Of a stretch of 64,000 nt of DNA, positions 11,143 to 47,959 are shown piece after piece. Under the pieces are notes generated by a model. That model saw only the letters and a list, made by a program, of their open reading frames with translations, searched no databases and had not been told where the DNA came from. The stretch is from a virus (lineage: Duplodnaviria > Heunggongvirae > Uroviricota > Caudoviricetes), in the IMG/VR virus record IMGVR_UViG_2740892441_000001, one strand, 5' to 3'. A program made the position numbers and the translations under genes. Numbering within the stretch: position 1 is the stretch's first letter; the number at the start of each line of letters is the position of its first letter.

Positions 11143-11208
11143 TACATGAAAGAAACCCACTTAGTGCAACCGATCGAGACTCTTCACCAAACAAAAATAT
11201 TTTTCTCA

Positions 11209-11258
11209 AATAAGAAAAGGCAGAAAACAAATTGTTTAAGGCCACTAGTTGTGGCCTT
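11209..11258 (-). promoter_or_regulatory. promoter-like motif plus hairpin (AAAAGGCAGAAAACAAATTGTTT + AAGGCCAC..GTGGCCTT)
   Basis: Same composite element as at 15399-15441. Confidence 0.35.
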
Positions 11259-11274
11259 AATGGGGGAGGGGTGC

Positions 11275-11799
11275 TTATTGGCTATGGCTAAAAATCAAAT
11301 GAGACACTTCATGTGGTTGTAGCTCGTCAAGATCCGGGGCCACAAAACCTTTTCCGAAAGACTTCACAAGTGATTCACCAGCCGCATCATTGTCACCTAT
11401 TACGCGAAAGTCATACGGCAGCATTGCCAGTTGACGACGTAATCCTGCTGAGAAAGTCGAACCTAACAGCGCCCACGAATTTCCGCCCGCGTTGTGCACT
11501 GCTGCACTTTTAAAAATCGACTCAGTTATCCATATCGGTCCATCTTTTAAAGGAAGATAGGTTCCCCATAGTAGCTGTCTGCCGTGCGCTCGTGTGAAAT
11601 ACCGGGCCATCTTCGGATTGCTATGCTGCTTAGGAGCGCCTGGTCTGTATGTCTGATACCCGGCCAACATCCCATCAAACCTGTATAGAGGGAACGTAAC
11701 AACTCCTTCGCTTTCATCGATCCACTGTCTATATGGATGCACATCATGGCGGTAGTTGCGAGTTAGCAAATGAGCTTCCAGCTTTCCAAATTTGGTCAT
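11275..11799 (-). CDS. Toprim-like domain protein (tentative)
   Basis: Start refined to ATG with GAGGGA RBS; conserved Glu and VIGDNDAAGE (DxD) motif resembling Toprim. Confidence 0.4.
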   Translation of the reverse strand: MTKFGKLEAHLLTRNYRHDVHPYRQWIDESEGVVTFPLYRFDGMLAGYQTYRPGAPKQHSNPKMARYFTRAHGRQLLWGTYLPLKDGPIWITESIFKSAAVHNAGGNSWALLGSTFSAGLRRQLAMLPYDFRVIGDNDAAGESLVKSFGKGFVAPDLDELQPHEVSHLIFSHSQ

Positions 11800-11812
11800 A
11801 ACTTCGCATCCC

Positions 11813-12667
11813 TCATAACACTTCCCATTTATCACCATATTTCTCCATAGCTCTTAGCCAGTAAACATGGCCACTAGGCATAGTGATGTGAGGCTCGCCA
11901 AACTCTTCTCCATGCACATCAAAGATGTCCCCAACAGAGAATTGGGGGATTTCTACGCCGTTTTCACCTATATGCGTAATTCGTATACGTTTCGGTTGAA
12001 ATTGTCCACCTTTGAGCGAGTTGTTCACTGCTCTGGCAATTTTCTCCCGCAATTGCTGCGTTACGTGGTACTGAACCGCAATATCCCGCAACTCGTTCAC
12101 CAGTTCTCTAATCTGGTGATCTTTAAGCTCATTATTTGGGTGATGGGCAACAACTCTGGTTAATTCACCCTTGTCTTTTGCTCTTACGTATGCAGCTCTT
12201 GTGCATTCGACCCATGTATTACCGCCTACATTAACTTCGTAGATTAGGCTGGACTTATCTGTCAATTCGGAACAAATACGGGCCGTGGTCTGGCAACTAG
12301 AGCATTCGCAGTTATCGCGGAAACCGTGGTCTACTGGCTGCGGTTTCACATCATCAACTTTTTCTACCCTATTGGAATTTAAATACTTCGAAGCCTTGCT
12401 ATGCCAATCGCTGGTTTTAGGATCTTGTCCATCCATCAAACGCCAGGCTTCAGCGATTAACTCATAACTAGTGACTGTAGCTTCCTGCGCATCACCAATA
12501 AGTCGTGTAATCTCTCTTTCAAGCCGACCGCCTAGCTCTGTTTTAGTGCAATGTTCTGACCAATCGCCAGCCTCAAGCAGCGCGAGAATGCTTAAAATAT
12601 CGTCCAATAGAACGGTAGTATTATCGACTTCCTTCTGAAACTCACCGGCTACTGATTTATGCATCAT
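11813..12667 (-). CDS. hypothetical protein with Cys cluster
   Basis: 284 aa ORF; CECSSC motif; operon with flanking genes. Confidence 0.5.
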   Translation of the reverse strand: MMHKSVAGEFQKEVDNTTVLLDDILSILALLEAGDWSEHCTKTELGGRLEREITRLIGDAQEATVTSYELIAEAWRLMDGQDPKTSDWHSKASKYLNSNRVEKVDDVKPQPVDHGFRDNCECSSCQTTARICSELTDKSSLIYEVNVGGNTWVECTRAAYVRAKDKGELTRVVAHHPNNELKDHQIRELVNELRDIAVQYHVTQQLREKIARAVNNSLKGGQFQPKRIRITHIGENGVEIPQFSVGDIFDVHGEEFGEPHITMPSGHVYWLRAMEKYGDKWEVL

Positions 12668-12966
12668 TCGTCATCCTCATCCGAGTCATCCTCATCACAG
12701 GATGAGAGTAGTGGGTTAGTCATTCGCCCTACTTGAGTGGCGTAGCCACGCCGACAGAGATTGCGCAGCACACTGTATATTTCGAACATCTCGGTTCGTT
12801 CATCGCCAACATCAAGCTCAGATGCTATAGCGTGGCATTCAGTCGCGAGAGCCGATATTTTCTGAAATAACTCTGCTTTATTCACTCTTAGACTCCTGCG
12901 GAGGTTCTGGTAGCGGCATCCAGTGAGTTGCTTGCTCAATACCATTACCCGGCTTAATCGTTGCAT
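12664..12966 (-). CDS. hypothetical protein (start uncertain)
   Basis: 100 aa ORF whose 5-prime end overlaps the upstream gene in another frame; true start may be internal. Confidence 0.25.
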   Translation of the reverse strand: MQRLSRVMVLSKQLTGCRYQNLRRSLRVNKAELFQKISALATECHAIASELDVGDERTEMFEIYSVLRNLCRRGYATQVGRMTNPLLSSCDEDDSDEDDE

Positions 12967-13612
12967 CTCCGCGCCGAAAGGTGCTTCCGGTATAGCGTGC
13001 GGAGCATATTAGCGGTTCAACCAGAGAGCTATCGAAATTCACCGAAATAAGCACGTTCTGGCCCTTTTCAGGCATTCGCTCACTACAGCTTATCCAACCA
13101 TCCGGAGTTACCGGATTGTTGCCAGCCTCATACGCGACCCTTATCCAGTGCATAAGCATTTCAGTACTTACACATCCACAATCAACATCAATTTTGTCAT
13201 GCTGCTGTTCCAGCCATTGCTCAAAAGTTAACTTGTAAGTTTGGCTTACAGGTTTGGCTTCCAGTTCTGCTATGTGATTTTTGGCTGATTCCAACTCAAT
13301 CGACAATTTTTCCAACTGCTCTTTATGATTTTTATATTCCTGATATGCGTGCCAAGACTGACCTTTGCGCACACTATCAGTGATATCAGCAACCTGCTCT
13401 GGTGTTAGCGTGGTCAGTGGCTGTGCTGGAAAAATCATCACTTGCCCGGCATCCCAATCAAAACCCGCCTGAATTGACTGAACCTCAACTGATGGTGTTG
13501 AACCGATGCGACCAGGCGAATGAACAACGATCGTTACATCCATATCGCGACGATGGCTGTGGTTGTTGGACAAAATACGATTCACCGACTCAGAAAATTT
13601 GGAAAATTTCAT
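12878..13612 (-). CDS. hypothetical protein with DUF551-like C-terminal motif (tentative)
   Basis: Start set at MKFSKF ATG forming an ATGA overlap with the upstream stop; C-terminal HWMPLPEPP-type motif. Confidence 0.45.
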
Positions 13613-13935
13613 GCTGACCCCTCTTTCTCTCCCCGGATAATTCTGTTGCACACATCCACACACTCGTCGCAGATGAAAACGGCGTCCCCAGCAATTAACT
13701 TTTTGACGGCGTACTGGGATTTGTTGCAGAAGCTGCAACAAAGTGTTCGCCTGGCTGATAAGGATGGAGCGCCAGATGTCAGCCGCTCCATATCGTTCTT
13801 GCGACGCAATATCACACGGCTGAACTCAACCAGTTTCTCCGGGGATATCTCCTCCTCCTCCGTAGCGAGCGTCTCTAGTCGTTCGAGTATGTGGAAGGCT
13901 TTTTCCTGGGTAATTGCAGAATGCGATGTGGTCAT
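13609..13935 (-). CDS. small protein with ClpX-type C4 zinc-binding domain
   Basis: C-terminal [31 protein letters not shown] closely resembles the ClpX N-terminal zinc-binding domain (LYCSFCGKSQHEVRKLIAG..YICDECVDLC, recalled from memory); no AAA+ module follows. Confidence 0.55.
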
Positions 13936-13936
13936 C

Positions 13937-14548
13937 TCACTCTCCTTTGATGCGAATGCCAGGGGCGCGTGGCACATTAACTTCCACGATGCGCACTGTT
14001 GGTTTGTACATCTCAATCGCTGTCAGCCAGTCAGCTCCTGTCATGCGCTTTTCCGCATCGCCATTAGTCCACTGAACCGGTACACCAATAGCCTTCATCG
14101 CGATTTCTATTTCCCCGGCAATGGCGCTTTTTCCGCAACCAGTAAAACCAGATACAACGACCAGAACTTCACCTTTGGCTGGTTTTATTTCCCGTGCTTC
14201 CAGTTCTGCAATGCGCTTACTTCCATCCGAGATAACGCCCTCGTAATACTCACGCTGCTCGTTGAGTTTTGATTTTGCCAACTCCAGTTGTTTTGTTAGT
14301 TCTGCAATACGACAAACATCGTTGATACGCGTTTCCTCTAATGCGTTGCTCTCATCCAGTAGCGCCAGCACGGTTTCTGGTCCGGCCAGAAATTTGAAGG
14401 CGTTGAGGGCATCAATATCAACACCGCTATCTTTAAGTTCCTGTTCGCTTATCAGATCATCATCAACTGGCAACATTAACAGGCGTTCCATTGCCGGAAT
14501 TGCACGCTCTGCCGCCTCACGCAGTGCCTGATAGTCAATCTTGCTCAC
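13937..14548 (-). CDS. hypothetical protein, paralogous module shared with 14545-14988, short Walker-A-like GFTGCGKS
   Basis: 203 aa; shares VLALLDE..LE.T.I..CRI.EL segment with the adjacent gene. Confidence 0.5.
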
Positions 14549-14988
14549 TGGATGACTCCTTTACGAAGCAGTTCAGCAATACTTACGCATATCTCTGCGC
14601 CTCTAATCAGCCCCGGAACGTTCTTGTTTGGCCCAACTTCACCATCAACAAAATCAATCATCGCGTTACGAGCCATATCCACGCCCTGCGCACGTACTTC
14701 AGCCAGAAAAGCATCGGTAGCTGGAGTTTCGCTGTGGTGCAGGGCATCGTTGATAATCATTGCAGCAACTCCGGCCTGCCCTGCATCCGTGACCGACACA
14801 TGCTCAAGAGTTACGGCCATTGCGTGTTTCAGCCCAGCGTTCTCTGCCACCAGCGCAGCGAGATTAGTCTCAAGCTCTGAAATTCGGCACGTGGCATCAA
14901 TATTTGTGTCCTCCAGCCGCTTAATTTCATCCAGTAGTGCCAGCACATCCTGCGGATGCTCTTCGACCTCTTCAAATTCTTCTTCCAT
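14545..14988 (-). CDS. hypothetical acidic protein, paralogous module shared with 13937-14548
   Basis: 147 aa; 4-nt overlap with downstream gene. Confidence 0.5.
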   Translation of the reverse strand: MEEEFEEVEEHPQDVLALLDEIKRLEDTNIDATCRISELETNLAALVAENAGLKHAMAVTLEHVSVTDAGQAGVAAMIINDALHHSETPATDAFLAEVRAQGVDMARNAMIDFVDGEVGPNKNVPGLIRGAEICVSIAELLRKGVIQ

Positions 14989-15022
14989 ATATCACCTCAA
15001 ATAAGTGGTTTGCTGCCTGAGC

Positions 15023-15352
15023 TTATTTTGCTTTGAGCAACTTCATCGCTTCGTCAATGCGTGATTGTGTCCCTGCGTTTGGCTCCACTACCTGAAGGCG
15101 GCGGGCATCTTCAAGAAGTTTCGCAATCATTTCTTTAAGTACTTCGTTATCGTTATTCATGAGCGTGCTCCTGTCAGTTAGCTTTGAGTAACGCGCCGCG
15201 ATTTGCATCTCCACGGTTCCGTCATGCAATGCAACAATCTCTCGGACAGCAACCGGGTGGTTGATGTAGTCTTCGCCGGTATATTTTCTTTTCTGACCAA
15301 CGCCACCATGAGCGCCAGCGGCGAACATATGAGCTTCGGAAATACTAGACAT
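15023..15352 (-). CDS. short HD-domain protein resembling the N-terminal half of Mesh1/SpoT-type (p)ppGpp hydrolases (tentative)
   Basis: AHGGVGQKRKYTGEDYINHPVAV...ALHDGTVE matches the H...HD signature; only 109 aa. Confidence 0.45.
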   Translation of the reverse strand: MSSISEAHMFAAGAHGGVGQKRKYTGEDYINHPVAVREIVALHDGTVEMQIAARYSKLTDRSTLMNNDNEVLKEMIAKLLEDARRLQVVEPNAGTQSRIDEAMKLLKAK

Positions 15353-15360
15353 TCTTAACT

Positions 15361-15441
15361 CCGTTGTTTTCTAGTTGTGGTTATTTTCACAAATAAGAAA
15401 AGGCAGAAAACAATTTATTCAAGGCCACAACTTATGGCCTT
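15361..15441 (-). promoter_or_regulatory. promoter-like motif plus hairpin
   Basis: TTGTTTTCTAGTTGTGGTTATT...AAAAGGCAGAAAACAATTTATTC AAGGCCA..TGGCCTT. Confidence 0.35.
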
Positions 15442-15471
15442 TATTTATTCATGCCGAAGGATTTGTAGCGT

Positions 15472-15852
15472 CTAATTGCCGGATAAAATGGGGTGAGGTG
15501 CTTGCCAGTAGGCCCCACCGTTCCATGTGAACCCCATGCGAATAAGAGTGTTTATTGCGGCTTTGGTAGACTCCGATTCGACACTGGCTTTTCGAAACTC
15601 TTGAACCTCTTTCGCCAACTTGTATGTAATTGTGCAGGGGACGATTGCAGCCCAGCCTTTCTCATGACTGTTAATGACCATCTGGATGTGACCATCCAGA
15701 ATAGGTTGATCAGGCATGTTATTGAAAACGTCTGCCTGTTTTTGAATGTGAAGAAAAAGCCTTGCCAGCTCCATTTGCTCACTACGAGACAAGGGATTAT
15801 CAAGAGGGCTTTTTGCAAAAGCGGCTATACGCTGTGCGTCAATGCCAAACAT
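15472..15852 (-). CDS. hypothetical protein
   Basis: 126 aa ORF, start/stop overlap with upstream gene. Confidence 0.45.
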   Translation of the reverse strand: MFGIDAQRIAAFAKSPLDNPLSRSEQMELARLFLHIQKQADVFNNMPDQPILDGHIQMVINSHEKGWAAIVPCTITYKLAKEVQEFRKASVESESTKAAINTLIRMGFTWNGGAYWQAPHPILSGN

Positions 15853-16556
15853 CAGCGCACCTCACCATCTTTATGGCTGGAGTTAACTTCCGCCATTAAA
15901 TGTCTGACGTAATCGACAAGAGAGCCACCTGGTGGAATCTGGCATTCCTCAACTAACTGGAAGTAGATATCAGCAGCATTACGTGTATTGCTACCCGCGC
16001 ATATTCTTTCTTCCCGAAGTGCATGAAGCTCGTTGATCAAACGGTCACACTCTCCGTTACGCTGATCCACAACAGCCTCAAGTTCTGCGACGCGTTCACC
16101 TGGCGTCTTACCTTCTTTGCGTTGGATGGTAACGACGAAATCGCCCATTTCAGGGACGTTGTAATCCAGCTCAAGGTAGTTTTTGGCACCGCTGCGGACG
16201 AACTCACCCGCGAACATGGTGGCGAACATCGCAGAGGCCATTGTGCCGTTGAAAAGTGACTCCAGATCTAACGGAGTCCCGGCAGCCAGAGCCTCTTTTG
16301 CTGTATCCATTGCATCCATGAACCGATCAAACTCATTGGCGCGCTTTTCCAGGTCTTTCCATTGCTCGCTCCAACGTTTGGCAACGAAGTCTATGAATGT
16401 TTTCGCGGATTCATCAAAATCCCCCTCAAACTTAACGATGCCTTTATCAATAATGATCTGGCCTACCGCATCCTCTGCATAACCTTTCAATGTAAACTTG
16501 AAAGGAAAATCGGAATGGCCTGTGACGTTAAAATGCTCTAACTGGAGGTTGCTCAT
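15852..16556 (-). CDS. hypothetical protein
   Basis: 234 aa ORF. Confidence 0.5.
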   Translation of the reverse strand: MSNLQLEHFNVTGHSDFPFKFTLKGYAEDAVGQIIIDKGIVKFEGDFDESAKTFIDFVAKRWSEQWKDLEKRANEFDRFMDAMDTAKEALAAGTPLDLESLFNGTMASAMFATMFAGEFVRSGAKNYLELDYNVPEMGDFVVTIQRKEGKTPGERVAELEAVVDQRNGECDRLINELHALREERICAGSNTRNAADIYFQLVEECQIPPGGSLVDYVRHLMAEVNSSHKDGEVR

Positions 16557-16617
16557 GTGTTTTTCTCTTATCGTTTAGTTACTACATTCTTACACAAATT
16601 AAGTAAGTATTTACCTA

Positions 16618-18303
16618 TTATTTAACGCGTTTGAAAACGTATACGCTGACTGTGATCCCGGTATCTTCAAACTCGTTGGTAAACGACTTCCCTTTGGCAT
16701 AAACGTAATTATCCATCGTCATCCAGCTCAGGATTGGCGCAGTGCCCGGCAATACTGCTACAAGACGCCCGCCGACTTTCAGATGCCCCAGCGCAGCCAG
16801 CGTGTGCTCTCTATGACGACCAAGCGAGTACGGCGGGTTCATAACGATTTTGTCGAACTGATAACCTGCGTTGTCCTCAGACCACTTTATGAAGTCACAG
16901 CAAATCGTGTTCGTATACCCTTTTCCACGCAGGATATCAGCGAAGAGAGGTGCGATTTCTATGCAGGTAACATCTTCCAGATCGGCGTTAATATAGGCCA
17001 GAAGATCCCCACGTCCGGCTTGAGGCTCCAGCAGCTTCTCACCAGGCTTCAATTCAGTGGCTCTGGCAACGTACTCAGCAATCAAGCGTGGGGTAGGGTA
17101 GAACTGGTGTGATTTTGTATCCGGTATTAAACCGGTAGCCACAATCGTATTTAGCGTATGGCCGATGTCATACGGGAACTGCCAGTGCTTTTTCTCCTGC
17201 ACGCCGCCAATGAAGCTCAGTGTGCGCTCAAGCTCTTCCACCTGCGACTTCTGGAGAGCTGAATCAGAGAAGTACCATACGCCTTTGTCTTTGCTCAATC
17301 GCCCGTCACGAAGCGCAGTGCGAACCGGCACGGAGATCGTCTTCTGGATTAAACCGAACTGCTTTGGTGCCCGTGTTTTTGGCGCAGTTCGGCATGGCGA
17401 GGGGATTGCAGCAGGCATACTGTAAGCCAGCACCTCATTCAACTTCCAGGCCACGTCAGGATGTATTTCAAAGTGAACGTTGCCGTTCTTGAACATCTTC
17501 ACGCGCATCAGATTTCCATCGACGTTCATCCAGTCACCGGTCTGGCAGTCGTTTGCCCTATACGCAGCTGATAGCACCTCAGCAGTGCGGTTGATGGTAA
17601 TAAATTCTTTGTGCGCGAAGAAATGAAGCAAGACACGCAGATCGTCGATGTAGTCCTCTTTGCGATAGTTCACGCTAACGCTGTCCCGCCAGAAATCAGA
17701 AATGCAGTCAGCGATTATCAGACGCTCGCTGAAACCGTTTGTCTTATTTGTCTTGTGCGCAGGACTCAGCGCCTTAAACAAGCCATACACGCGCTCAGAG
17801 AGATATTTGTGCCTGTCATTCAGCAAATTAAGCATCGTGGGTATGACCGTTTCTGCTTTGAACTCCGGTACACCAACGAACTCTTTAACCTTCATCTGGT
17901 AGCCGGTTCTGTCGGTTTTGATGACTTCCTGTTTGCCCTCTATAAACTGCTCGCGCCACTCATCTCGACGGGAAGCTGGCATGATCAGCAAAACGTTAGT
18001 CATGTCCGTGACCTTCCTCCAGTACTCGGCCCAAATATTCTGTTTCACCCATTCCAGATCGACTTTATCCAGCCAAGCTCGATTCAAACGTGAGCGTTCT
18101 TCATCTGGTCGGTGGTTCAGTTGCAGCAGGCGATTAATCATGTTGTGGCGTTCGTCGCCATAAACGAAGTCGTGAACCTGGTACATGAAAGCGATCTCTT
18201 TCTCGCACTCGGCCACAATTTCGTGGATGACGTTCATTTCCTGCCGATAGTCGATAGCAGTGTTTGAGTTGGCATCGTCGATGATGGAAAGGGCTGTATT
18301 CAT
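16618..18303 (-). CDS. N6-adenine DNA methyltransferase, gamma-class motif order, with about 400 aa N-terminal region
   Basis: C-terminal FYPTP...LLEPQAGRGDLL...VMNPPY (motifs I and IV as in TaqI-like N6A MTases); no adjacent restriction gene recognised. Confidence 0.6.
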   Translation of the reverse strand: MNTALSIIDDANSNTAIDYRQEMNVIHEIVAECEKEIAFMYQVHDFVYGDERHNMINRLLQLNHRPDEERSRLNRAWLDKVDLEWVKQNIWAEYWRKVTDMTNVLLIMPASRRDEWREQFIEGKQEVIKTDRTGYQMKVKEFVGVPEFKAETVIPTMLNLLNDRHKYLSERVYGLFKALSPAHKTNKTNGFSERLIIADCISDFWRDSVSVNYRKEDYIDDLRVLLHFFAHKEFITINRTAEVLSAAYRANDCQTGDWMNVDGNLMRVKMFKNGNVHFEIHPDVAWKLNEVLAYSMPAAIPSPCRTAPKTRAPKQFGLIQKTISVPVRTALRDGRLSKDKGVWYFSDSALQKSQVEELERTLSFIGGVQEKKHWQFPYDIGHTLNTIVATGLIPDTKSHQFYPTPRLIAEYVARATELKPGEKLLEPQAGRGDLLAYINADLEDVTCIEIAPLFADILRGKGYTNTICCDFIKWSEDNAGYQFDKIVMNPPYSLGRHREHTLAALGHLKVGGRLVAVLPGTAPILSWMTMDNYVYAKGKSFTNEFEDTGITVSVYVFKRVK

Positions 18304-23172: not shown

Positions 23173-23766
23173 CTAAGCAGCCTTCTTTGATGGTCTTTTT
23201 TTCCTGATCACATTCGCAGGATCATACCCTCCCAGACTTTTCATGACGTCCAAAGGGATCTTGCTTATAGAGTGCCCAGCGTCCTGACAGAATCCTCGAA
23301 AAACAACGAGCATACTGCCACCTGGGTTGATGTTTACTTCTACCTGACCCAGATTGACGTCAGGCTCGACAAACGCTACGCGGCCACCAGACAGAATAAT
23401 CGTCTCATTCGCACACTCTGTTGCACGCTCATACCACTTTGTATCTAGGGATTGAGGAATTAGCATCACTGTTGTAACTCCGCGAGCCTGCTCACGTATA
23501 GCCGCATCAATCCAGGGGGAGATTTTGGAGTAGGGTGGATTGAGGAAGGCAATTGTACCTGGCTGTCCCCATTCAGATTTCAAAGCATCACGCTCAACGC
23601 CTATGAAATTAGGCAGCTTTGCATTGTCCTTGTTGCAGGCAACGTCAACATCAAATGTCACTCCAAGATAACGTTGAATGGCAGAAAACAGCCAGTCAGG
23701 TGTTCTCCAGAGGTCACGAAGAGAGTTGTCGCGCTTTCGCTGTTTGATTTTTTCGGCTGCAATCAT
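23173..23766 (-). CDS. phage Dam-family N6-adenine DNA methyltransferase
   Basis: LWRTPDWLF...FDVDVA...AFLNPPYS signature of phage-type Dam MTases. Confidence 0.7.
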   Translation of the reverse strand: MIAAEKIKQRKRDNSLRDLWRTPDWLFSAIQRYLGVTFDVDVACNKDNAKLPNFIGVERDALKSEWGQPGTIAFLNPPYSKISPWIDAAIREQARGVTTVMLIPQSLDTKWYERATECANETIILSGGRVAFVEPDVNLGQVEVNINPGGSMLVVFRGFCQDAGHSISKIPLDVMKSLGGYDPANVIRKKRPSKKAA

Positions 23767-39930: not shown

Positions 39931-40593
39931 TTAAACCCTGAGATTACGTTTAAAACGTCTCAGTGGCTTTTTACGCGCTGCGTTTATGCTTATGACGCCA
40001 GCTTTTGGACGTGGGTCAACAAGGTTAAGCTCTTCTTCGCTGTGGTATTCGAGGTCGAACTCACGTTTTACATGTCTGATGTAGATTGCGGTGAGCAGGC
40101 TATCTTTGGTCAGAAAGTGTCCGTAGGATTTGCGGATCACTTCTTCTACCTTCTCGATTTTCTCACCACCCATACAGAGATGATTAAACCGGCTGTGTTT
40201 CCGCAACATTTCGTCTACTGGGCCTGAGTAAACCTTGTCTACTTTCCCAAAACGGATGATTTTCCCTGTGTCTGCGGATACGAGGCAAATCAGCTTGTCT
40301 GGTGATAAACGATCTCGCCACGTCACACCTGAACGGAGTGTGTTGAAGTAGGGCGCATCCAATCCGATGATCGGTTTACGAAATGCGAGCAATGGAACGT
40401 ACCTGATACAACTATTCAAATGAAAGTTCACACCAGCCTTATCAAGTTTAATTCTGGTTTCGTAGATCGGGCACTTCGCCGCTATACCGCAGATATCACA
40501 AAGTAACTTCTGCTTATTCAGGTTGGAATTTGATTCGATAGTGTAGGAGCCGTCCTCAAGACGACGAACCCAGCGCGTGCGTTTTAGATCCAT
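39931..40593 (-). CDS. hypothetical protein with N-terminal CxxC pair
   Basis: 220 aa ORF. Confidence 0.5.
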   Translation of the reverse strand: MDLKRTRWVRRLEDGSYTIESNSNLNKQKLLCDICGIAAKCPIYETRIKLDKAGVNFHLNSCIRYVPLLAFRKPIIGLDAPYFNTLRSGVTWRDRLSPDKLICLVSADTGKIIRFGKVDKVYSGPVDEMLRKHSRFNHLCMGGEKIEKVEEVIRKSYGHFLTKDSLLTAIYIRHVKREFDLEYHSEEELNLVDPRPKAGVISINAARKKPLRRFKRNLRV

Positions 40594-40692
40594 AATCGTT
40601 TTTTCAGTAGTTATTGGCCGATGCTACGATAACTCATTAGGCATACCTTAATCTGCATTTGCCTGTTTTACTTATCCCAGTTATCCACTGGA

Positions 40693-40752
40693 TAGATCCA
40701 AATAAGAGATCCCAAGTAAGATCAAATAGAAGATCCAAAGAGATCCCCGATC
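40693..40752. promoter_or_regulatory. GATC (Dam site) cluster, six sites in about 60 bp
   Basis: GATC repeated at 10-13 bp spacing; typical of Dam-controlled origins. Confidence 0.45.
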
Positions 40753-40792
40753 GCCTCTAGCCGTTGCGGTTACTGGTCTGAAAGGGTGTTGC

Positions 40793-40900
40793 CATCCACT
40801 ATGGAGAGCAAAGAAACCTCTGTAGAGAGCTGAATAACCGCTATGAAGAGTAAAACAACCACTCTGGAGAGCTGTATATATCCACTGTAGAGAGTAGAGC
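40793..40900. repeat. iteron array 1 (about five ~21 bp direct repeats, ACCACT.T.GAGAG-type)
   Basis: Direct repeats at regular ~21 bp spacing. Confidence 0.5.
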
Positions 40901-41006
40901 ACATTGTCTTTTATGGATAACTTAATGACTTAATTCTTCATTAACATACTGATATACATAGATATATTTTAAACTCTACTCTTAGTCATGATTCTTATGT
41001 CCTTAA

Positions 41007-41015
41007 ATATCCACA
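41007..41015. promoter_or_regulatory. DnaA-box-like ATATCCACA
   Basis: 8/9 match to TTATCCACA. Confidence 0.4.
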
Positions 41016-41053
41016 GAAGAGTAGAGTTACCTGTTCTTGAAATCCTCTGATTT

Positions 41054-41062
41054 TTATCCACA
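41054..41062. promoter_or_regulatory. DnaA box TTATCCACA
   Basis: 9/9 match to consensus. Confidence 0.5.
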
Positions 41063-41171
41063 GGCCCGATCCAGTAATTCAGATCACAAAGAGAACCAAA
41101 GAGACCCATAAAGACCCAATAAGATCCCCGCCCACCTCAAACCGTTGTGCCATCTGCCTTCAGACATGATC

Positions 41172-41300
41172 GATATCCACTATAGAGAGCGAATAATCCA
41201 CTATAGGGAGCAAAGCAACCACTATAGAGAGGAGAAAAACCACTATAGACGGTAGGATAACCGCTGTGATGAGTGCTACTATCCACTGTAATCAGCAAAG
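41172..41300. repeat. iteron array 2 upstream of repA (six ~21 bp direct repeats ATCCACTATAGAGAG-type)
   Basis: Regular direct repeats ending about 35 bp before the repA start. Confidence 0.6.
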
Positions 41301-41336
41301 GCCACCAAAGCCGTCGAATAACAAGAGACATTTGGA

Positions 41337-42392
41337 ATGAGCGAAAACGGCAATAAAAACATAGCGATCGTTGAAGCATTTTCAGAAACAGATAAAAAGA
41401 CAGGCGAAGTTGTTACGTTGGTTCCTAACACTAATAACACTGTTCAGCCTGTTGCTTTGATGCGTCTGGGCCTCTTCGTTCCGACGCTGAAATCGACATC
41501 CAGAGGAAGAAAGGGGCAAATGGTCTCTATGGATGCCTCTGCTGAACTCAAACAGCTGTCTCTGGCAAAAGCCGAAGGGTACGAAGACATAAGGATCTCT
41601 GGCCTTCGGCTTGATATGGATAACGACTTTAAAACGTGGGTGGGAATAATCCACGCGTTTGCCAAACACAAGGTCGTTGGCGATACTGTCACGTTGCCGT
41701 TCGTTGAGTTTGTAAGGCTGTGTGGCATTCCGACCGCCAGGTCATCAGCGAAGTTACGCAAACGCCTGGACAGTTCGCTAAGCCGTATTGCCACAAATAC
41801 CATCTCGTTCCGTAGCAAAGGCTCTGATGAGTTTTACGTAACGCATCTTGTGCAAACGGCAAAATATAGTGTCAAGCACGATACGGTCGAACTGAAAGCA
41901 GATCCCAAGATTTTCGAACTCTACCAGTTCGACAAAAAGGTTCTTCTGCAACTCCGGGCTATAAACGAACTCTCAAGAAAAGAATCCGCTCAGGCGCTTT
42001 ATACTTTTATTGAAAGTTTGCCGCCTGATCCGGCACCAATATCACTAGCCCGTTTACGCGCCAGACTTAATCTGACAAGTCGCACTATTACTCAGAATGC
42101 GACGGTAAGAAAGGCTATGGAACAGCTGCGAGAGATAGGATATCTCGATTACACGGAAGTTAAGCGCGGAAACTCGGTCTACTTCGTCATCCACTATAGG
42201 CGGCCAAAGTTACGCCAGGCACAAATATCAACAAAAATCGATAATGATGAGACGGAATATAGCCTCCCAGATGAGAATCAAGATGACATTATCGACGTTG
42301 TGCCTGACGAAAAAGAAGGCAAAATGGTCATGTTGAGTAAAGAAGAACTGGCGCTTCTCGAAGAGTTGCGCAAGGCAAAGACTCGCAAATAG
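41337..42392 (+). CDS. repA: plasmid replication initiator RepA (P1/P7-type, iteron-binding)
   Basis: [16 protein letters not shown] and [19 protein letters not shown] resemble P1 RepA as recalled; flanked by iteron arrays. Confidence 0.8.
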
Positions 42393-42404
42393 CCCAACCA
42401 CTGT

Positions 42405-42875
42405 AGTTAGTAGTAAGGCTCACTATCCACTGTAGTGAGCCTTACTTATATCTGTAATTCGCTATCCACTATAGTGAGTATCGTTATCTGTTGATAACCA
42501 CTGTAGGCAGTAGAATGCAAATACTGAATCAAATGTTAGTGATCACTAACACTGATGAAACAAGGGCTGCGAGGTTAGTGGTCACTGGGTATCTTGGAAA
42601 ATTTACTGTCTATAGTGGTTGTTGTCGCCCTCATCTTTGAGCGTATCCACTGTGGCGAGTGGATATCCACTGAAAACAGCAAAGGCTTACTCACCATAGT
42701 GGATACCCGCTGGACATCTCACTCCAATACTCACCATAGTGGTTGTTTGATGCGAATGAAAGGCTGTCTACTCGCTACAGTGGTTAGCAGATATGTAGGA
42801 AGAGAGGACTGCAGACCACAGTGGATAATGAGCTGATACGAATGCGGTGAGCTGGCTACTCACCGCAGTGGTTGG
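42405..42875. repeat. iteron array 3 downstream of repA (about 12 copies of CCACT(A/G)TAG in both orientations)
   Basis: Same core as the upstream iterons; resembles P1 incA-type copy-control arrays. Confidence 0.6.
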
Positions 42876-42880
42876 TGCTA

Positions 42881-43093
42881 TTAGTGTATTTTCTTCAACA
42901 GGCCCCAAAGTGTTCCGGCTTTTGTAGTCAGTTTTCCTGTTTCTGGATCGTACATACGCCATTCACGCCGCTGGTGGACGATATACCCATCTTCACGTTC
43001 CAGACGCTCAAGAATGCCAGGCTGCTTGAAACCCTTAGCACGCCAGTATCCGCTTGTTTTCTCGATTTCCAGACCTGCCAGTGTTAATGCCAT
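42881..43093 (-). CDS. hypothetical small protein
   Basis: 70 aa ORF. Confidence 0.3.
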   Translation of the reverse strand: MALTLAGLEIEKTSGYWRAKGFKQPGILERLEREDGYIVHQRREWRMYDPETGKLTTKAGTLWGLLKKIH

Positions 43094-43428
43094 TATCCAA
43101 CCTCCTTGCAGTCATCGAAAAGGTAGCTTTGCTGAGAAGCGTGCACGCCATAGAAGCCCTTGTATTTGTTGTATACGAAGTGGTCTTCTCCGACGCCGGT
43201 TAATTTGCCATTACGGTTTGTGAGATATGGGGATGACAATACTCGATCGTCACGCACAACATAGAACTGGTCGCCGCTGTCTACGACCATCGCTCCATAT
43301 GGTGCTTTTATGACGTCGGTAAGAGCGCCATTCTTAACGTCGGCTACAGACATTTCACACTGATAAACAGTGGTGTCGGCCACAACGATCGAGGAAAGGA
43401 ACAACAGAGCGAATGGGATGGCCTTCAT
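43093..43428 (-). CDS. hypothetical secreted protein (N-terminal signal peptide)
   Basis: MKAIPFALLFLSSIVVA hydrophobic leader. Confidence 0.45.
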   Translation of the reverse strand: MKAIPFALLFLSSIVVADTTVYQCEMSVADVKNGALTDVIKAPYGAMVVDSGDQFYVVRDDRVLSSPYLTNRNGKLTGVGEDHFVYNKYKGFYGVHASQQSYLFDDCKEVG

Positions 43429-43643
43429 GCTGCCACCTCTTTGATTACATCAAATGCTGAATTAAATACGAGCACGATAGCCAAAGCGTTTATGACTACA
43501 TCGTTCACCGGGGAAAAGACTTTACGAATGACACCAGTGAAAATGCAGTCGATGACAAAAGCTATTGACACGATGAGTAACAAGTATTCAATAAAAATCT
43601 TCATGATAGGTAGATACTAACTTATATAAATTTTACTGTAAAC

Positions 43644-45614: not shown

Positions 45615-45619
45615 GATAA

Positions 45620-47959
45620 TTAATCTTCTAGTTCTTCTGTTGGTGATGTCTTCTCTCGTCGGTCATCTATCGCCTGTAACGCAGCAATGATTTCAGCCAG
45701 TGGCTTCTCCCGATACATCTCGACGATCTGCGATTTGGTGTATTTCTTGTCACCAATTTCAACTCTCCCGCTGGCGTTCTTTGGCAGGTATCCTTCTTCC
45801 AGCATGTACTCGACGAGCGATTCGATAACGTCGAGGCCACGAGTAGGATCGAAGTAGAATTTCCAGGTGCATTTGCCATACGGTGGTGCAACTTTGTTTT
45901 TGATGCACTCTGCGCCTACGTCCTGACCGATCTTCTCTTTCCCATCCTTCATCACCGATGCACCGAGACGGATGCGCACAGAAGCGTAAAACTTCGGTGA
46001 ATCGCCGCCTGGAGACGTAGTAGGGTCGCCAAACATTACACCGATTTTTGTGCGAACCTGATTCAAGAAGATGATGCAGGCGTTGTATTTGCGTGCCCAC
46101 AAAGCCAGAGTAGGGAAGTTCGCACTCGTCGCACGCGCCAGTGCCGTATTGTCGTTCATGTTTAGCTGATCTTTGTCTTTGGCTGTGCCTTCAGCCATCT
46201 TTTCGAACTTCTCGGCTTTGGAGTTCGGAACCATAGACGCAAGAGAGTCAGCCACGATACAGATAGGTGCTGATTCGGGGATAAGCTCTTCATCACGAAC
46301 CAATTTAAGTATTGTGCCGATCAACTCTACAGAGTCTTCGAAGGTATCTGGCTGCTTGTATACCCACTGACCGTCATCCTCATCTGCATTCAAACCATTG
46401 GCTACAGCCAGGCCAACGTCAAAACTGTTTTCATGATCGAGGAATACCGCCAGACCATCTTGTTTTTGAGCGGAGATCATCGCTGCTGTTGCAAGGAATG
46501 TGTTGTGGCTGATAATCCCGTTAGACCAGAAAGAGTGTGTTTCCGGCATCGCTACGTCGAACGTTGGTGCTTCACCTTCCTCAATAGCCACGACTTCGTC
46601 GTAGAACAAGTTAGAGCCAATTACCGCTGCCAGTTGTGCAAACAGATGCTCGTTAAAACGATTCTTTCTGCCAATGAAGGAGACATAGATTTCTCGCAGT
46701 TTGTCTATTCCGACACGATCGCCGCGGCCAATAACGTGGTCTACCAGAGCGTAGTCTTCACGGGTGGTCTTGGTGAGCGACTCGTAGAGTGATTTCACTA
46801 AGCCGCTGATGTGCGGAACATAGCCTGAGTAAGTGCGGTCAAAACCAATGTCCCGTTTGGTTGCCACTGATAAACGTGCCGGAGATTCGAAACCAATCGT
46901 TGACAGAAAAAGGTCGTAATTAGAGCCACTGAATGACAGCCGGTAATATGTATTTTCATAACCCGCGACGTGTTTTTCAGAGATAGTTGACGTAATCCCC
47001 AGATTCAGGAGCATGAGGCGAATTTGCTGTAGCAGCAGCCCACTCGCGCTCACAACCTCAATGCAGCGACCATCATTGACGTGGCATTCCAGCTCAAAGT
47101 AGCCGCGAAGGAATGCAATTTGAGCCTCGCTATTGGCGCGACGCACACTCAACGGAACCTGCTTGCCAGCAGCTTTCTCATACTCCAGACCATATTCTTT
47201 AAAAAGCAGCGAACGCACCTCTTTGCTAAACAGCACATGGTCTTCCGAGCCGTTATGTTTTCTCGTAACTGGCATCTTGTCTGATACCAGCGAAATGAGG
47301 CGGTAGTACTCATCCTTGATGAAAGGATCTGTGTTAGAAAAATTCACTGAATTTTCAGAGGCCACGTATCCGTCAGCAATTAAATAGCCCATCAGTTTTG
47401 CGATATTGGCATCCAGGTGCTGATCGCCGAATTGATGTGTGCCAACCATTGAAGGAATCGTGTCGCCTACACTGATTTTTTCAGCATGTCGCCAGACGAC
47501 ATTACCTAAGTCGTCAACCACACGGATTGGGTGACGGAACGTAGCCTCGATATAACCGCCTGATGCCAGCTTAATACGCTTGAATTTGCGACGGTTGTTC
47601 CATGTCAGGTGTGAGGTCTTCTCTATCACGCCATTTTCATTGATGAGTCCAACGTTATGCTCTACATCGCGAGTAGTGCATGTCGCTTTGTACCCTTCAA
47701 TCTCAAACAACTCTTTCACTGTTACCATTCCACGCTCCGTCAGCAGCATGGTGTCTGCGGTAACACATTTCCCCGCACTTGGAGGACCGAATACTTCGAC
47801 GATACGACCACATGGGAAACCGCCATCGTAACGACCGGAAATCGCTTTGTTTAACGGAGGAAAGCCTGTGTCAATCCAATGAGTTACTTTCTGAATTTCG
47901 TCGTTGCTACCGATTTTCTTTTTCAGAGCAAGTGCCAGTGCGGATTTTCCTTTTGCCAT
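45620..47959 (-). CDS. recA: RecA-like recombinase interrupted by an in-frame intein
   Basis: Exteins give GPPSAGK|TFLAT (Walker A) and a RecA-like C-terminal core (IFLNQVRTKIGVMFGDPTTSPGG..KFYASVRIRL); about 357 aa without the intein. Confidence 0.8.
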   Translation of the reverse strand: MAKGKSALALALKKKIGSNDEIQKVTHWIDTGFPPLNKAISGRYDGGFPCGRIVEVFGPPSAGKCVTADTMLLTERGMVTVKELFEIEGYKATCTTRDVEHNVGLINENGVIEKTSHLTWNNRRKFKRIKLASGGYIEATFRHPIRVVDDLGNVVWRHAEKISVGDTIPSMVGTHQFGDQHLDANIAKLMGYLIADGYVASENSVNFSNTDPFIKDEYYRLISLVSDKMPVTRKHNGSEDHVLFSKEVRSLLFKEYGLEYEKAAGKQVPLSVRRANSEAQIAFLRGYFELECHVNDGRCIEVVSASGLLLQQIRLMLLNLGITSTISEKHVAGYENTYYRLSFSGSNYDLFLSTIGFESPARLSVATKRDIGFDRTYSGYVPHISGLVKSLYESLTKTTREDYALVDHVIGRGDRVGIDKLREIYVSFIGRKNRFNEHLFAQLAAVIGSNLFYDEVVAIEEGEAPTFDVAMPETHSFWSNGIISHNTFLATAAMISAQKQDGLAVFLDHENSFDVGLAVANGLNADEDDGQWVYKQPDTFEDSVELIGTILKLVRDEELIPESAPICIVADSLASMVPNSKAEKFEKMAEGTAKDKDQLNMNDNTALARATSANFPTLALWARKYNACIIFLNQVRTKIGVMFGDPTTSPGGDSPKFYASVRIRLGASVMKDGKEKIGQDVGAECIKNKVAPPYGKCTWKFYFDPTRGLDVIESLVEYMLEEGYLPKNASGRVEIGDKKYTKSQIVEMYREKPLAEIIAALQAIDDRREKTSPTEELED
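46502..47767 (-). mobile_element. intein with LAGLIDADG homing-endonuclease domain inserted in the RecA P-loop
   Basis: Begins with Cys after GPPSAGK, ends ...SHN before Thr; LAGLIDADG-like blocks LMGYLIADGYV and FLRGYFELECHV; 422 aa. Confidence 0.7.

Follow-up and report, generated by a model that had tools for sequence, protein, structure and literature searches.

In P1 and P7 the plasmid replicon runs oriR/incC, repA, incA; the annotation of P1 places PrepA inside the incC iterons, and P1 incA consists of three plus-strand and then six minus-strand iterons, starting at the stop codon. Classical RepFIB replicons (P307, F, pO157) have the order DnaA box, GATC cluster, spacer, upstream iterons, rep, hairpin, and downstream control iterons, an order shared with the locus described here. 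The elements SSU5, pHCM2, pMT1, and Cyrano (pLF82) carry the same replicon as this locus, typed IncFIB by MOB-suite; the corresponding PlasmidFinder type is IncFIB(pHCM2). Cyrano has a plasmid state of ∼5.5 copies per cell and also makes virions (PMC9928086).

Positions 40672-42873 of the window (the whole 64-kb stretch of viral DNA analyzed) very probably contain a theta replicon of the iteron-controlled P1/RepFIB family, the one by which an SSU5/pHCM2/pMT1-type phage-plasmid maintains itself as a plasmid. The 2.3-kb replicon is 100% identical to that of the E. coli plasmid pEcoFMU073332c (typed IncFIB, with repA annotated), 99.4% identical to the phage-plasmid Cyrano/pLF82, and 82% identical to Salmonella phage SSU5. 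Outside the replicon, the window matches a circular E. coli plasmid of 113 kb, whose sole type is IncFIB, at 95-98.6% identity. Because the closest of these phage relatives exists both as plasmid and as virions, and because the rest of the window resembles an IncFIB plasmid, these matches support the assignment of the element to the phage-plasmids. The phage structural genes lie outside the 64-kb window. An earlier note, made from the letters of this DNA, had read the locus as a P1-type replicon of a plasmid-replicating phage-plasmid, and that reading is supported by RepA homology, by a layout that follows P1 element by element, and by the known plasmid and phage matches; the DnaA boxes, GATC sites, iterons, repA, and downstream array that it listed are all in place. 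Since the replicon matches annotated plasmids and phages at 82%-100%, however, the reading was already known: Dozens of annotated plasmid records and one studied phage-plasmid contain the identical sequence, the replicon type is already catalogued, and we are dealing with the ordinary plasmid-replication unit of an E. coli SSU5/pHCM2-type phage-plasmid. Identification as a plasmid-borne prophage rather than a lytic phage is correct but nothing new. The one less obvious trait is that the origin-like block 5′ of repA is doubled in tandem, with both copies conserved. The features are as follows.

40672-40689, plus strand: paired DnaA-box-like 9-mers TTATCCCAG and TTATCCACT (the one at 40681 with 1 mismatch), aligning base for base with the 18-bp DnaA site that is annotated in P1 oriR.
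40695-40752: six GATC sites in AGATCC-type heptamers ∼10 bp apart, the densest GATC cluster in the window, aligning with the five Dam sites annotated in P1 oriR.
40753-40793: G+C-rich spacer (59% GC), equal in position to the GC-rich spacer of P1 oriR.
40794-40900, plus strand: distal array of five direct iterons (starts 40794, 40815, 40836, 40857, and 40880; spacing 21, 21, 21, and 23 bp), from pattern and matrix scans.
40901-41053: inter-module spacer (28.6% GC), evolving at about the neutral rate (64% identity against a synonymous proxy of ∼67%).
41054-41062, plus strand: DnaA box TTATCCACA, the only perfect copy in the window.
41065-41130: heptamer repeat region with three GATC sites (41068, 41082, and 41123) and three conserved non-GATC heptamers (AGAACC, AGACCC, and AGACCC).
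41175-41301, plus strand: proximal array of six direct iterons (starts 41175, 41196, 41217, 41238, 41259, and 41281; spacing 21, 21, 21, 21, and 22 bp), the last ending 36 nt 5′ of the repA start codon.
41337-42392, plus strand: repA, encoding a predicted iteron-binding initiator of 351 amino acids with Rep_3 WH1 and WH2 (ORF call, Pfam, and BLAST; annotated in identical plasmid and phage records).
42189-42205, plus strand: borderline iteron-like 17-mer within repA, found in every relative at an equal offset.
42396-42873, both strands: incA-like array of 11 strong iterons and one weak, the first four on the plus strand from 4 nt past the repA stop and the rest mostly on the minus strand with ∼40-bp spacing.
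42412-42446, plus strand: perfect 15-bp hairpin directly 3′ of the repA stop, found by folding, whose loop and 3′ arm contain the iteron at 42425.

The two-winged-helix Rep_3 architecture of RepA is recovered by Pfam (Rep3_N, 1.3e-10, 42.2 bits against a cut-off of 22.4; Rep3_C, 1.3e-4, 22.6 bits against 21.1), and the protein matches phrog_775 at 6.8e-146. No NCBIfam model matches it, and a sequence search detected no solved structure resembling it. Its relationship to P1 and P7 RepA, proposed in the earlier note, is borne out by tblastn (47.5% identity over amino acids 40-293, E = 1e-71) and, for P1, by BLASTP (49% over 267 amino acids, E = 5e-93). The label "P1-type" is therefore apt for homology and layout but not for nearest kinship: RepA is 61%-66% identical to the RepA of classical RepFIB, the nearest named replicon, and these comparisons place it in the pHCM2/pMT1/SSU5 branch of the RepFIB family. 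Among relatives, codon positions 1 and 2 of repA are 94%-96% identical and position 3 only 66%, indicating strong purifying selection. A sigma-70 consensus scan for the repA promoter gave only weak, nonconserved candidates and no credible promoter, the top match lying in the lineage-specific AT-rich spacer; by analogy with incC in P1, the promoter and operator would lie within the proximal iterons. The hairpin 3′ of the gene (−26.9 kcal/mol, z = −4.8) has an equivalent inverted repeat 3′ of rep in classical RepFIB and is a possible repA terminator.

There are 22 strong iterons in the replicon, with the consensus A[A/T]CCACT[A/G]T[A/G]G[A/T]GAG; those upstream are in 21-bp phase. The core AWCCACTRTRG with at most one mismatch occurs 28 times in the window against 5.5 ± 2.5 expected, a count equaled in none of 100 shuffles, and 21 of the 28 matches fall in 40794-42873. 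A 17-nt weight matrix, trained on the same 22 sites that it scores, gives them 18-26 bits, compared with at most 13.9 bits elsewhere in the window, outside the region. Two sites are borderline: 42665, with 16.0 bits, and 42189, within repA, with 14.6 bits. The latter encodes IHYRR and may be kept by coding conservation alone; scoring barely over background, it was dropped as a genuine iteron. Downstream of repA the plus-strand iterons are at 42396, 42425, 42464, 42496, and 42645, with the weak copy at 42665, and the minus-strand 17-mers start at 42604, 42688, 42728, 42769, 42810, and 42857, in agreement with the "about 12" copies in both orientations claimed previously. In FIB replicons, downstream iterons serve incompatibility and control through handcuffing (PMC11983097). 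Searching 40000-43500 against Rfam returned no RNA family and so gave no hint of antisense-RNA copy control. At 2-kb resolution, GC skew runs through 41 kb without a switch and carries no origin signal at that scale, and it was set aside as an origin locator. Two small minus-strand ORFs (40681-40902 and 41137-41379) were likewise rejected as genes, being read-throughs of the origin repeats.

The two upstream arrays of ∼21-bp iterons reported earlier are present, but they are not parts of one origin: Each belongs to a separate copy of a whole P1-oriR-like module, the two copies standing in tandem with a period of 381 bp and 77% identity. The order in both is DnaA box or boxes, GATC heptamers, spacer, and iterons. 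The predicted DnaA boxes of the earlier note are found upstream of repA in both modules, whereas its two GATC clusters fare unequally. The distal cluster has six sites in 58 bp, in the densest 100 bp of a window whose background is 0.42 per 100 bp, and has kept all six; the proximal one is only partly real, half-decayed to three sites plus another at 41168. Three GATC per 100 bp are found at five places in the window, and the second cluster is meaningful only because it is a paralog of the first in which three heptamers have changed.

Sequence conservation was judged against a synonymous-site proxy of ∼67% identity, with six aligned relatives that amount to only about three independent lineages. 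By this measure, conservation in SSU5, pMT1, pHCM2, and others exceeds that of synonymous sites in each of the two iteron arrays and in the proximal heptamers. Compared with SSU5, for which synonymous sites are 68% identical, the distal iterons are 85% identical (P = 4e-5) and the proximal heptamers 95% (P = 4e-8; 93%-95% overall), and the proximal iterons reach 89%-90% against the proxy. Of the two modules, the proximal one shows the stronger conservation. In the distal module, all 24 GATC bases are invariant across the six diverged relatives while the intervening bases vary, and by analogy these heptamers are a putative Dam/SeqA target. The relatives have TTATTCACA at the distal pair of DnaA boxes, fitting a TTWTNCACA consensus, and TTATACACA at the position of the perfect box at 41054. 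The inter-module spacer holds two conserved DnaA-box-like islands (40912-40920, minus strand; 41007-41015, plus strand).

Two modules are present in the SSU5-type elements and in Pantoea plasmids; only one is found in P1, classical RepFIB, and the Klebsiella relatives. The proximal module lies where P1, classical RepFIB, Klebsiella pKpn-type, and PhiR41_1 replicons have their single origin. In Moellerella pW1-b, one DnaA/GATC cluster with four iterons is followed by a DnaA box with four iterons directly before rep, a layout whose sequence marks out origin and operator parts already apart. A matrix of pairwise identities among nine origin modules is flat (0.68-0.90, and 0.68-0.83 throughout between different elements), and we rejected it as a test of a single duplication event in Pantoea and SSU5. 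Layout features common to the two (paired distal boxes, a single proximal box, and irregular spacing of the last iteron) nevertheless suggest one event. The literature searched does not describe the doubled origin; pMT1 papers of 1998 and a plasmid-prophage survey of 2018 fall outside it and may contain a description. We tentatively suggest that the SSU5/pHCM2/pMT1 branch and its Pantoea relatives possess two complete, selected modules in a two-origin or origin-plus-decoy design, one that could separate methylation-gated initiation from RepA autoregulation. The doubling makes this a natural model in which to study how two adjacent origin-like sites share Dam/SeqA gating, DnaA, and iteron handcuffing, and it matters for the design of mini-replicons or curing cassettes against pHCM2/pMT1-type elements.

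By extension from P1, F, and RepFIB, RepA monomers would occupy the iterons of an origin module, which are in 21-bp phase, and with host DnaA on the boxes alongside would open the adjacent GATC-heptamer region, where the host replisome would load. Methylation of the GATC cluster would license the origin, and SeqA on the hemimethylated cluster would delay its re-firing. RepA on the iterons next to repA would repress the gene, and the 12 downstream iterons would titrate RepA and handcuff the origin iterons, giving a low copy number. As a working model, the distal module (40672-40900) would be the Dam-dependent origin proper, because its DnaA-box pair and its six GATC sites have all been kept, and the proximal module (41054-41301) would be mainly the repA promoter and operator and an extra control element binding RepA and DnaA, because half its GATC sites are gone, yet the block is conserved and abuts repA. 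We favor this division of labor because the invariance of the distal GATC sites amid drifting bases is the constraint expected of Dam sites, because the proximal heptamer block is conserved throughout, non-GATC heptamers included, and because pW1-b has separate origin and operator parts. Against it, by position and stronger conservation the proximal module could equally be the main origin, and in Pantoea this module still has four of its five GATC heptamers.

The roles may indeed be reversed, a reading to which we give limited credence: The proximal module would then be the working origin and repA operator, as incC/oriR is in P1, and the distal module an auxiliary, incA-like control site acting by handcuffing or titration through extra RepA, DnaA, and SeqA sites. 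Its location, that of the single origin in the one-module replicons, together with the perfect DnaA box and the greater conservation, fits this reading. The function of the P1 origin depends critically on its GATC heptamers, however; three of the six proximal heptamers lack GATC, a loss that is itself conserved, and the distal module keeps a full P1-like origin set that a pure titration site would not need. It is rather unlikely that both modules are working origins under different conditions, for example a Dam/SeqA-gated once-per-cycle maintenance origin and a less methylation-dependent one that fires despite sequestration. All origin elements are present in both modules in P1-like geometry, purifying selection acts on both, the pair is kept in SSU5-type elements and in the distant Pantoea plasmids, and the element encodes its own Dam-family methyltransferase (23173-23766), but in other plasmids extra iteron arrays usually serve control and not as second origins. 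That the region is an inactive relic, the element being kept by another replicon or by phage-type replication only, is highly improbable. The element does encode many replication proteins itself, DnaE, RecA, and enzymes of nucleotide metabolism among them; yet repA is intact and under the selection described above, the iterons are conserved, IncFIB is the only type assigned to the matching circular plasmids, and the region occurs in at least 335 plasmid records.

The replicon is 80%-82% identical to SSU5, pMT1, and pHCM2, and the SSU5/pHCM2/pMT1/Cyrano group has both modules, with 5 + 6 upstream iterons at equal offsets. Flanking genes shared with the window comprise SbcCD (SbcC/SbcD), an ASCH-like gene, repA, and a cra-like gene, and a further shared neighbor is a RecA gene whose annotation names a LAGLIDADG homing endonuclease. 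Unlike in these relatives, the inter-module spacer of the window is AT-rich, and the left end of the distal module (TTATCCACTGGATAGATCC) resembles that of P1 and Klebsiella relatives, not SSU5; the downstream iterons number 12, compared with 12-15 in the relatives. The RepFIB-like replicons of Pantoea (e.g., pASB05p2), compared by replicon only in a plasmid of 207 kb, have the same iteron core, AACCACTATAGCGAG, a RepA that is ∼69% identical, and two tandem origin-like modules with paired DnaA boxes in the distal one; unlike the window, whose proximal module has lost half of them, they keep nearly all GATC heptamers in both.

The tandem DnaA site and GATC heptamers of P1 align base for base with the distal module, P1 has five phased iterons, and its incA is like the downstream array of the window. 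P1 differs in having one origin module and another iteron, GATGTGTGCTGGAGGGAAA, and its par operon directly follows incA, where the window has small unrelated genes. RepA of the window has ∼20 extra N-terminal and ∼58 extra C-terminal residues compared with P1 RepA. Classical RepFIB has the closest RepA outside the clade, but a single origin module as against two here, and its iterons (FIB of pU13A_A) are of the ATAAGCTGTGGCATG type as against ATCCACTATAGAGAG in the window. Given this difference, a different specificity is expected, and probably compatibility. These comparisons indicate that the replicon of the window is a sister type within the RepFIB family, distinct in predicted specificity from classical FIB.

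The 2.3-kb replicon shares 100% identity with the Escherichia coli plasmid pEcoFMU073332c (113 kb, circular and non-mobilizable, with repA annotated and IncFIB as its only replicon type), at least 99% with 52 plasmid records, 99.4% with the phage-plasmid Cyrano (pLF82), and 82% with Salmonella phage SSU5. Cyrano and SSU5 also carry the flanking genes found here (SbcC, SbcD, an ASCH-like gene, repA, and a cra-like gene). Cyrano is present at ∼5.5 copies per cell and produces virions (PMC9928086), and elements of the SSU5 type form a recognised supergroup of phage-plasmids (PMC7969092). Given these identities, the earlier note was right to read the element as a plasmid-replicating phage-plasmid, and the replicon itself, which belongs to an established family, has been catalogued before.

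Most of the remaining window is 95%–98.6% identical to pEcoFMU073332c, with a few unmatched stretches. One of these, 11154–17855, is a variable cargo island: The plasmid has a type I restriction-modification system there (hsdM, hsdS, hsdR), and the window instead has unrelated sequence whose products include proteins with DUF551 and DUF4942 domains, alongside several ORFs that have no Pfam match. At 45619–47958 (−) lies a 779-aa ORF that the plasmid record labels "LAGLIDADG family homing endonuclease" and the Cyrano record "RecA"; an intein probably interrupts a RecA gene here.

All repeats in the replicon are explained by one iteron motif, A[A/T]CCACT[A/G]T[A/G]G[A/T]GAG[T/C]A, and fall into three arrays.

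Iteron arrays of the replicon
40794–40900, + strand: distal array, five iterons spaced 21, 21, 21, and 23 bp
41175–41301, + strand: proximal array, six iterons spaced 21, 21, 21, 21, and 22 bp
42396–42873, both strands: downstream array, eleven strong sites and one weak

The 11-nt iteron core, at up to one mismatch, has 28 matches in the 64-kb window (5.5 ± 2.5 expected; 28 reached by none of 100 shuffles), 21 of them within 40794–42873. With a 17-nt weight matrix, 22 sites in the replicon region score 18–26 bits and sites outside that region at most 13.9, a separation that is partly by construction because these 22 are the matrix's own training sites. The downstream array begins 4 nt past the repA stop codon with four + strand iterons, followed by mostly − strand copies spaced ∼40 bp; annotated P1 incA is laid out likewise, with three iterons on the + strand from the stop codon and then six on the − strand. 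The two upstream arrays of ∼21-bp iterons and the roughly 12 incA-like downstream copies described in the earlier note are thus all present.

The DnaA boxes it placed in the origin are likewise borne out. The window's sole perfect TTATCCACA box lies at 41054, and two abutting boxes farther upstream, TTATCCCAG/TTATCCACT (40672–40689), align with the 18 bp annotated as the DnaA site in P1 oriR. Two GATC clusters had been proposed. The first holds up: with six sites at 40695–40752, no other 100 bp of the window is as rich in GATC (background, 0.42 per 100 bp), and the sites align with the five annotated Dam sites in P1 oriR. The second, however, has only three GATC (41068, 41082, and 41123) plus 41168, a count that, taken alone, is not unusual in the window. 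The element also encodes a Dam-family N6-adenine methyltransferase (23173–23766, −; Pfam PF05869, 2.5e-38); if this predicted enzyme acts on GATC, it could control methylation of the origin's GATC clusters independently of host Dam.

repA is the ORF at 41337–42392 (+), encoding a 351-aa protein in which Pfam Rep3_N (WH1) and Rep3_C (WH2) both exceed curated cut-offs and which PHROG 775 matches end to end (6.8e-146). Its proposed homology to P1/P7 RepA is confirmed, at 47.5% identity to both over residues 40–293 (tblastn, E = 1e-71) and 49% to P1 RepA across 267 residues (BLASTP, E = 5e-93). Outside its own clade, it is closest to the RepFIB initiators carried by IncF plasmids (61%–66% identity over 80%–94% of length). 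A sequence-based search detected no structure homologue of RepA, consensus scanning found no repA promoter, and the replicon region yielded no Rfam families; GC skew was uninformative. A perfect 15-bp hairpin directly 3′ of the stop codon (42412–42446, +; −26.9 kcal/mol, z = −4.8) probably serves as terminator of repA; one iteron occupies its loop and 3′ arm, and classical RepFIB has an equivalent inverted repeat 3′ of rep (record L012, 2314–2366). Within repA, an iteron-like 17-mer, ATCCACTATAGGCGGCC (42189–42205, +; 14.6 bits), has an identical offset (+852) in all six relatives and could be a RepA site or a mere by-product of the conserved IHYRR peptide.

The region upstream of repA is a tandem duplication: 40660–40905 aligns to 41033–41300 at 77% identity over its full length, with a 381-bp period. 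Both modules contain every component of P1 oriR: DnaA box(es), AGATCC-type heptamers at ∼10-bp spacing, a spacer rich in G+C, and phased iterons. All six GATC sites are intact in the distal module, which has paired DnaA boxes; three heptamers of the proximal one are changed (AGAACC, AGACCC, and AGACCC). The 150 bp between them are 28.6% GC in the present lineage. At its left end (40672–40700) the distal module of this E. coli lineage reads TTATCCACTGGATAGATCC, as in P1 and the Klebsiella relatives; SSU5, pMT1, and pHCM2 carry TTATTCACAGGCCCGATCC (columns 78–106 of the alignment of relatives), and the segment looks like a short patch acquired by recombination or gene conversion from a different origin of the P1 family.

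Both modules recur in SSU5, pMT1, pHCM2, an Enterobacter hormaechei plasmid, and E. coli pP59A-2, each of the five with 5 + 6 iterons at identical offsets from repA. Matches spanning 80% or more of the upstream region occur in at least 335 plasmid records. As a neutral proxy we took the third positions of those repA codons whose amino acid is identical (67% identity, window versus others).

Identity of upstream segments, window versus relatives (mean over five relatives), with single-pair binomial P against SSU5 where computed
Inter-module spacer: 64%, about neutral
Distal GATC region: 78%; taken whole, P only 0.04
Distal iterons: 85%; P = 4e-5
Proximal DnaA box: 94%
Proximal heptamers: 93%; P = 4e-8
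Proximal iterons: 89%; P = 7e-9
Leader: 92%

Across the six aligned sequences, which represent about three independent lineages, 24 out of 24 GATC bases of the distal region are invariant while the intervening bases vary, and the proximal non-GATC heptamers are themselves largely invariant. Selection therefore maintains both modules, apparently for different reasons, to judge from these patterns.

By analogy with P1, mini-F, and RepFIB (P1 annotation; PMC11983097; PMC6090056; textbook P1 oriR), RepA monomers would load the phased iterons and DnaA the flanking boxes, opening the heptamer region; Dam methylation would license the origin, and SeqA would sequester the hemimethylated GATC cluster. 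RepA would repress its own promoter, and the downstream array would titrate RepA and handcuff the origin. With the intact GATC sites in one module and the altered heptamers in the other, we tentatively favor a distal module acting as methylation-gated origin and a proximal module serving as operator and control element. The reverse assignment, in which the proximal module, with its perfect DnaA box, is the origin and the distal one the control element, seems somewhat less likely; that both are working origins, each having the full set of components, we consider less likely still.

Only the conserved tandem modules may have gone undescribed so far, the likeliest sources lying outside the literature covered. 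Layouts elsewhere in the family are as follows.

Origin layouts in related replicons
P1: one module
Classical RepFIB on IncF plasmid: one module
Klebsiella pKpn-type relatives and E. coli phage PhiR41_1: one module; iteron differs (GTATGCTGTCAGCGGTA)
Pantoea agglomerans pASB05p2: two tandem modules; paired DnaA boxes in the distal
Moellerella wisconsensis pW1-b (record L015, 1600–1925): one DnaA/GATC cluster, four iterons, DnaA box, four iterons, rep

The Moellerella plasmid is SSU5-like with an intermediate layout, its middle DnaA box (AAAACTATCCACACA) being a P1-like right-hand box. A module identity matrix gave no proof of single versus multiple origin of the doubled arrangement. The pASB05p2 RepA is ∼69% identical to ours and its iteron core is the same; its two-module layout recurs in ∼50 Pantoea plasmids and in two diverged species of the genus. 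Across the family, it is therefore the branch with ACCACTATAG iterons that has the doubled or split arrangement, which predates the SSU5 clade.
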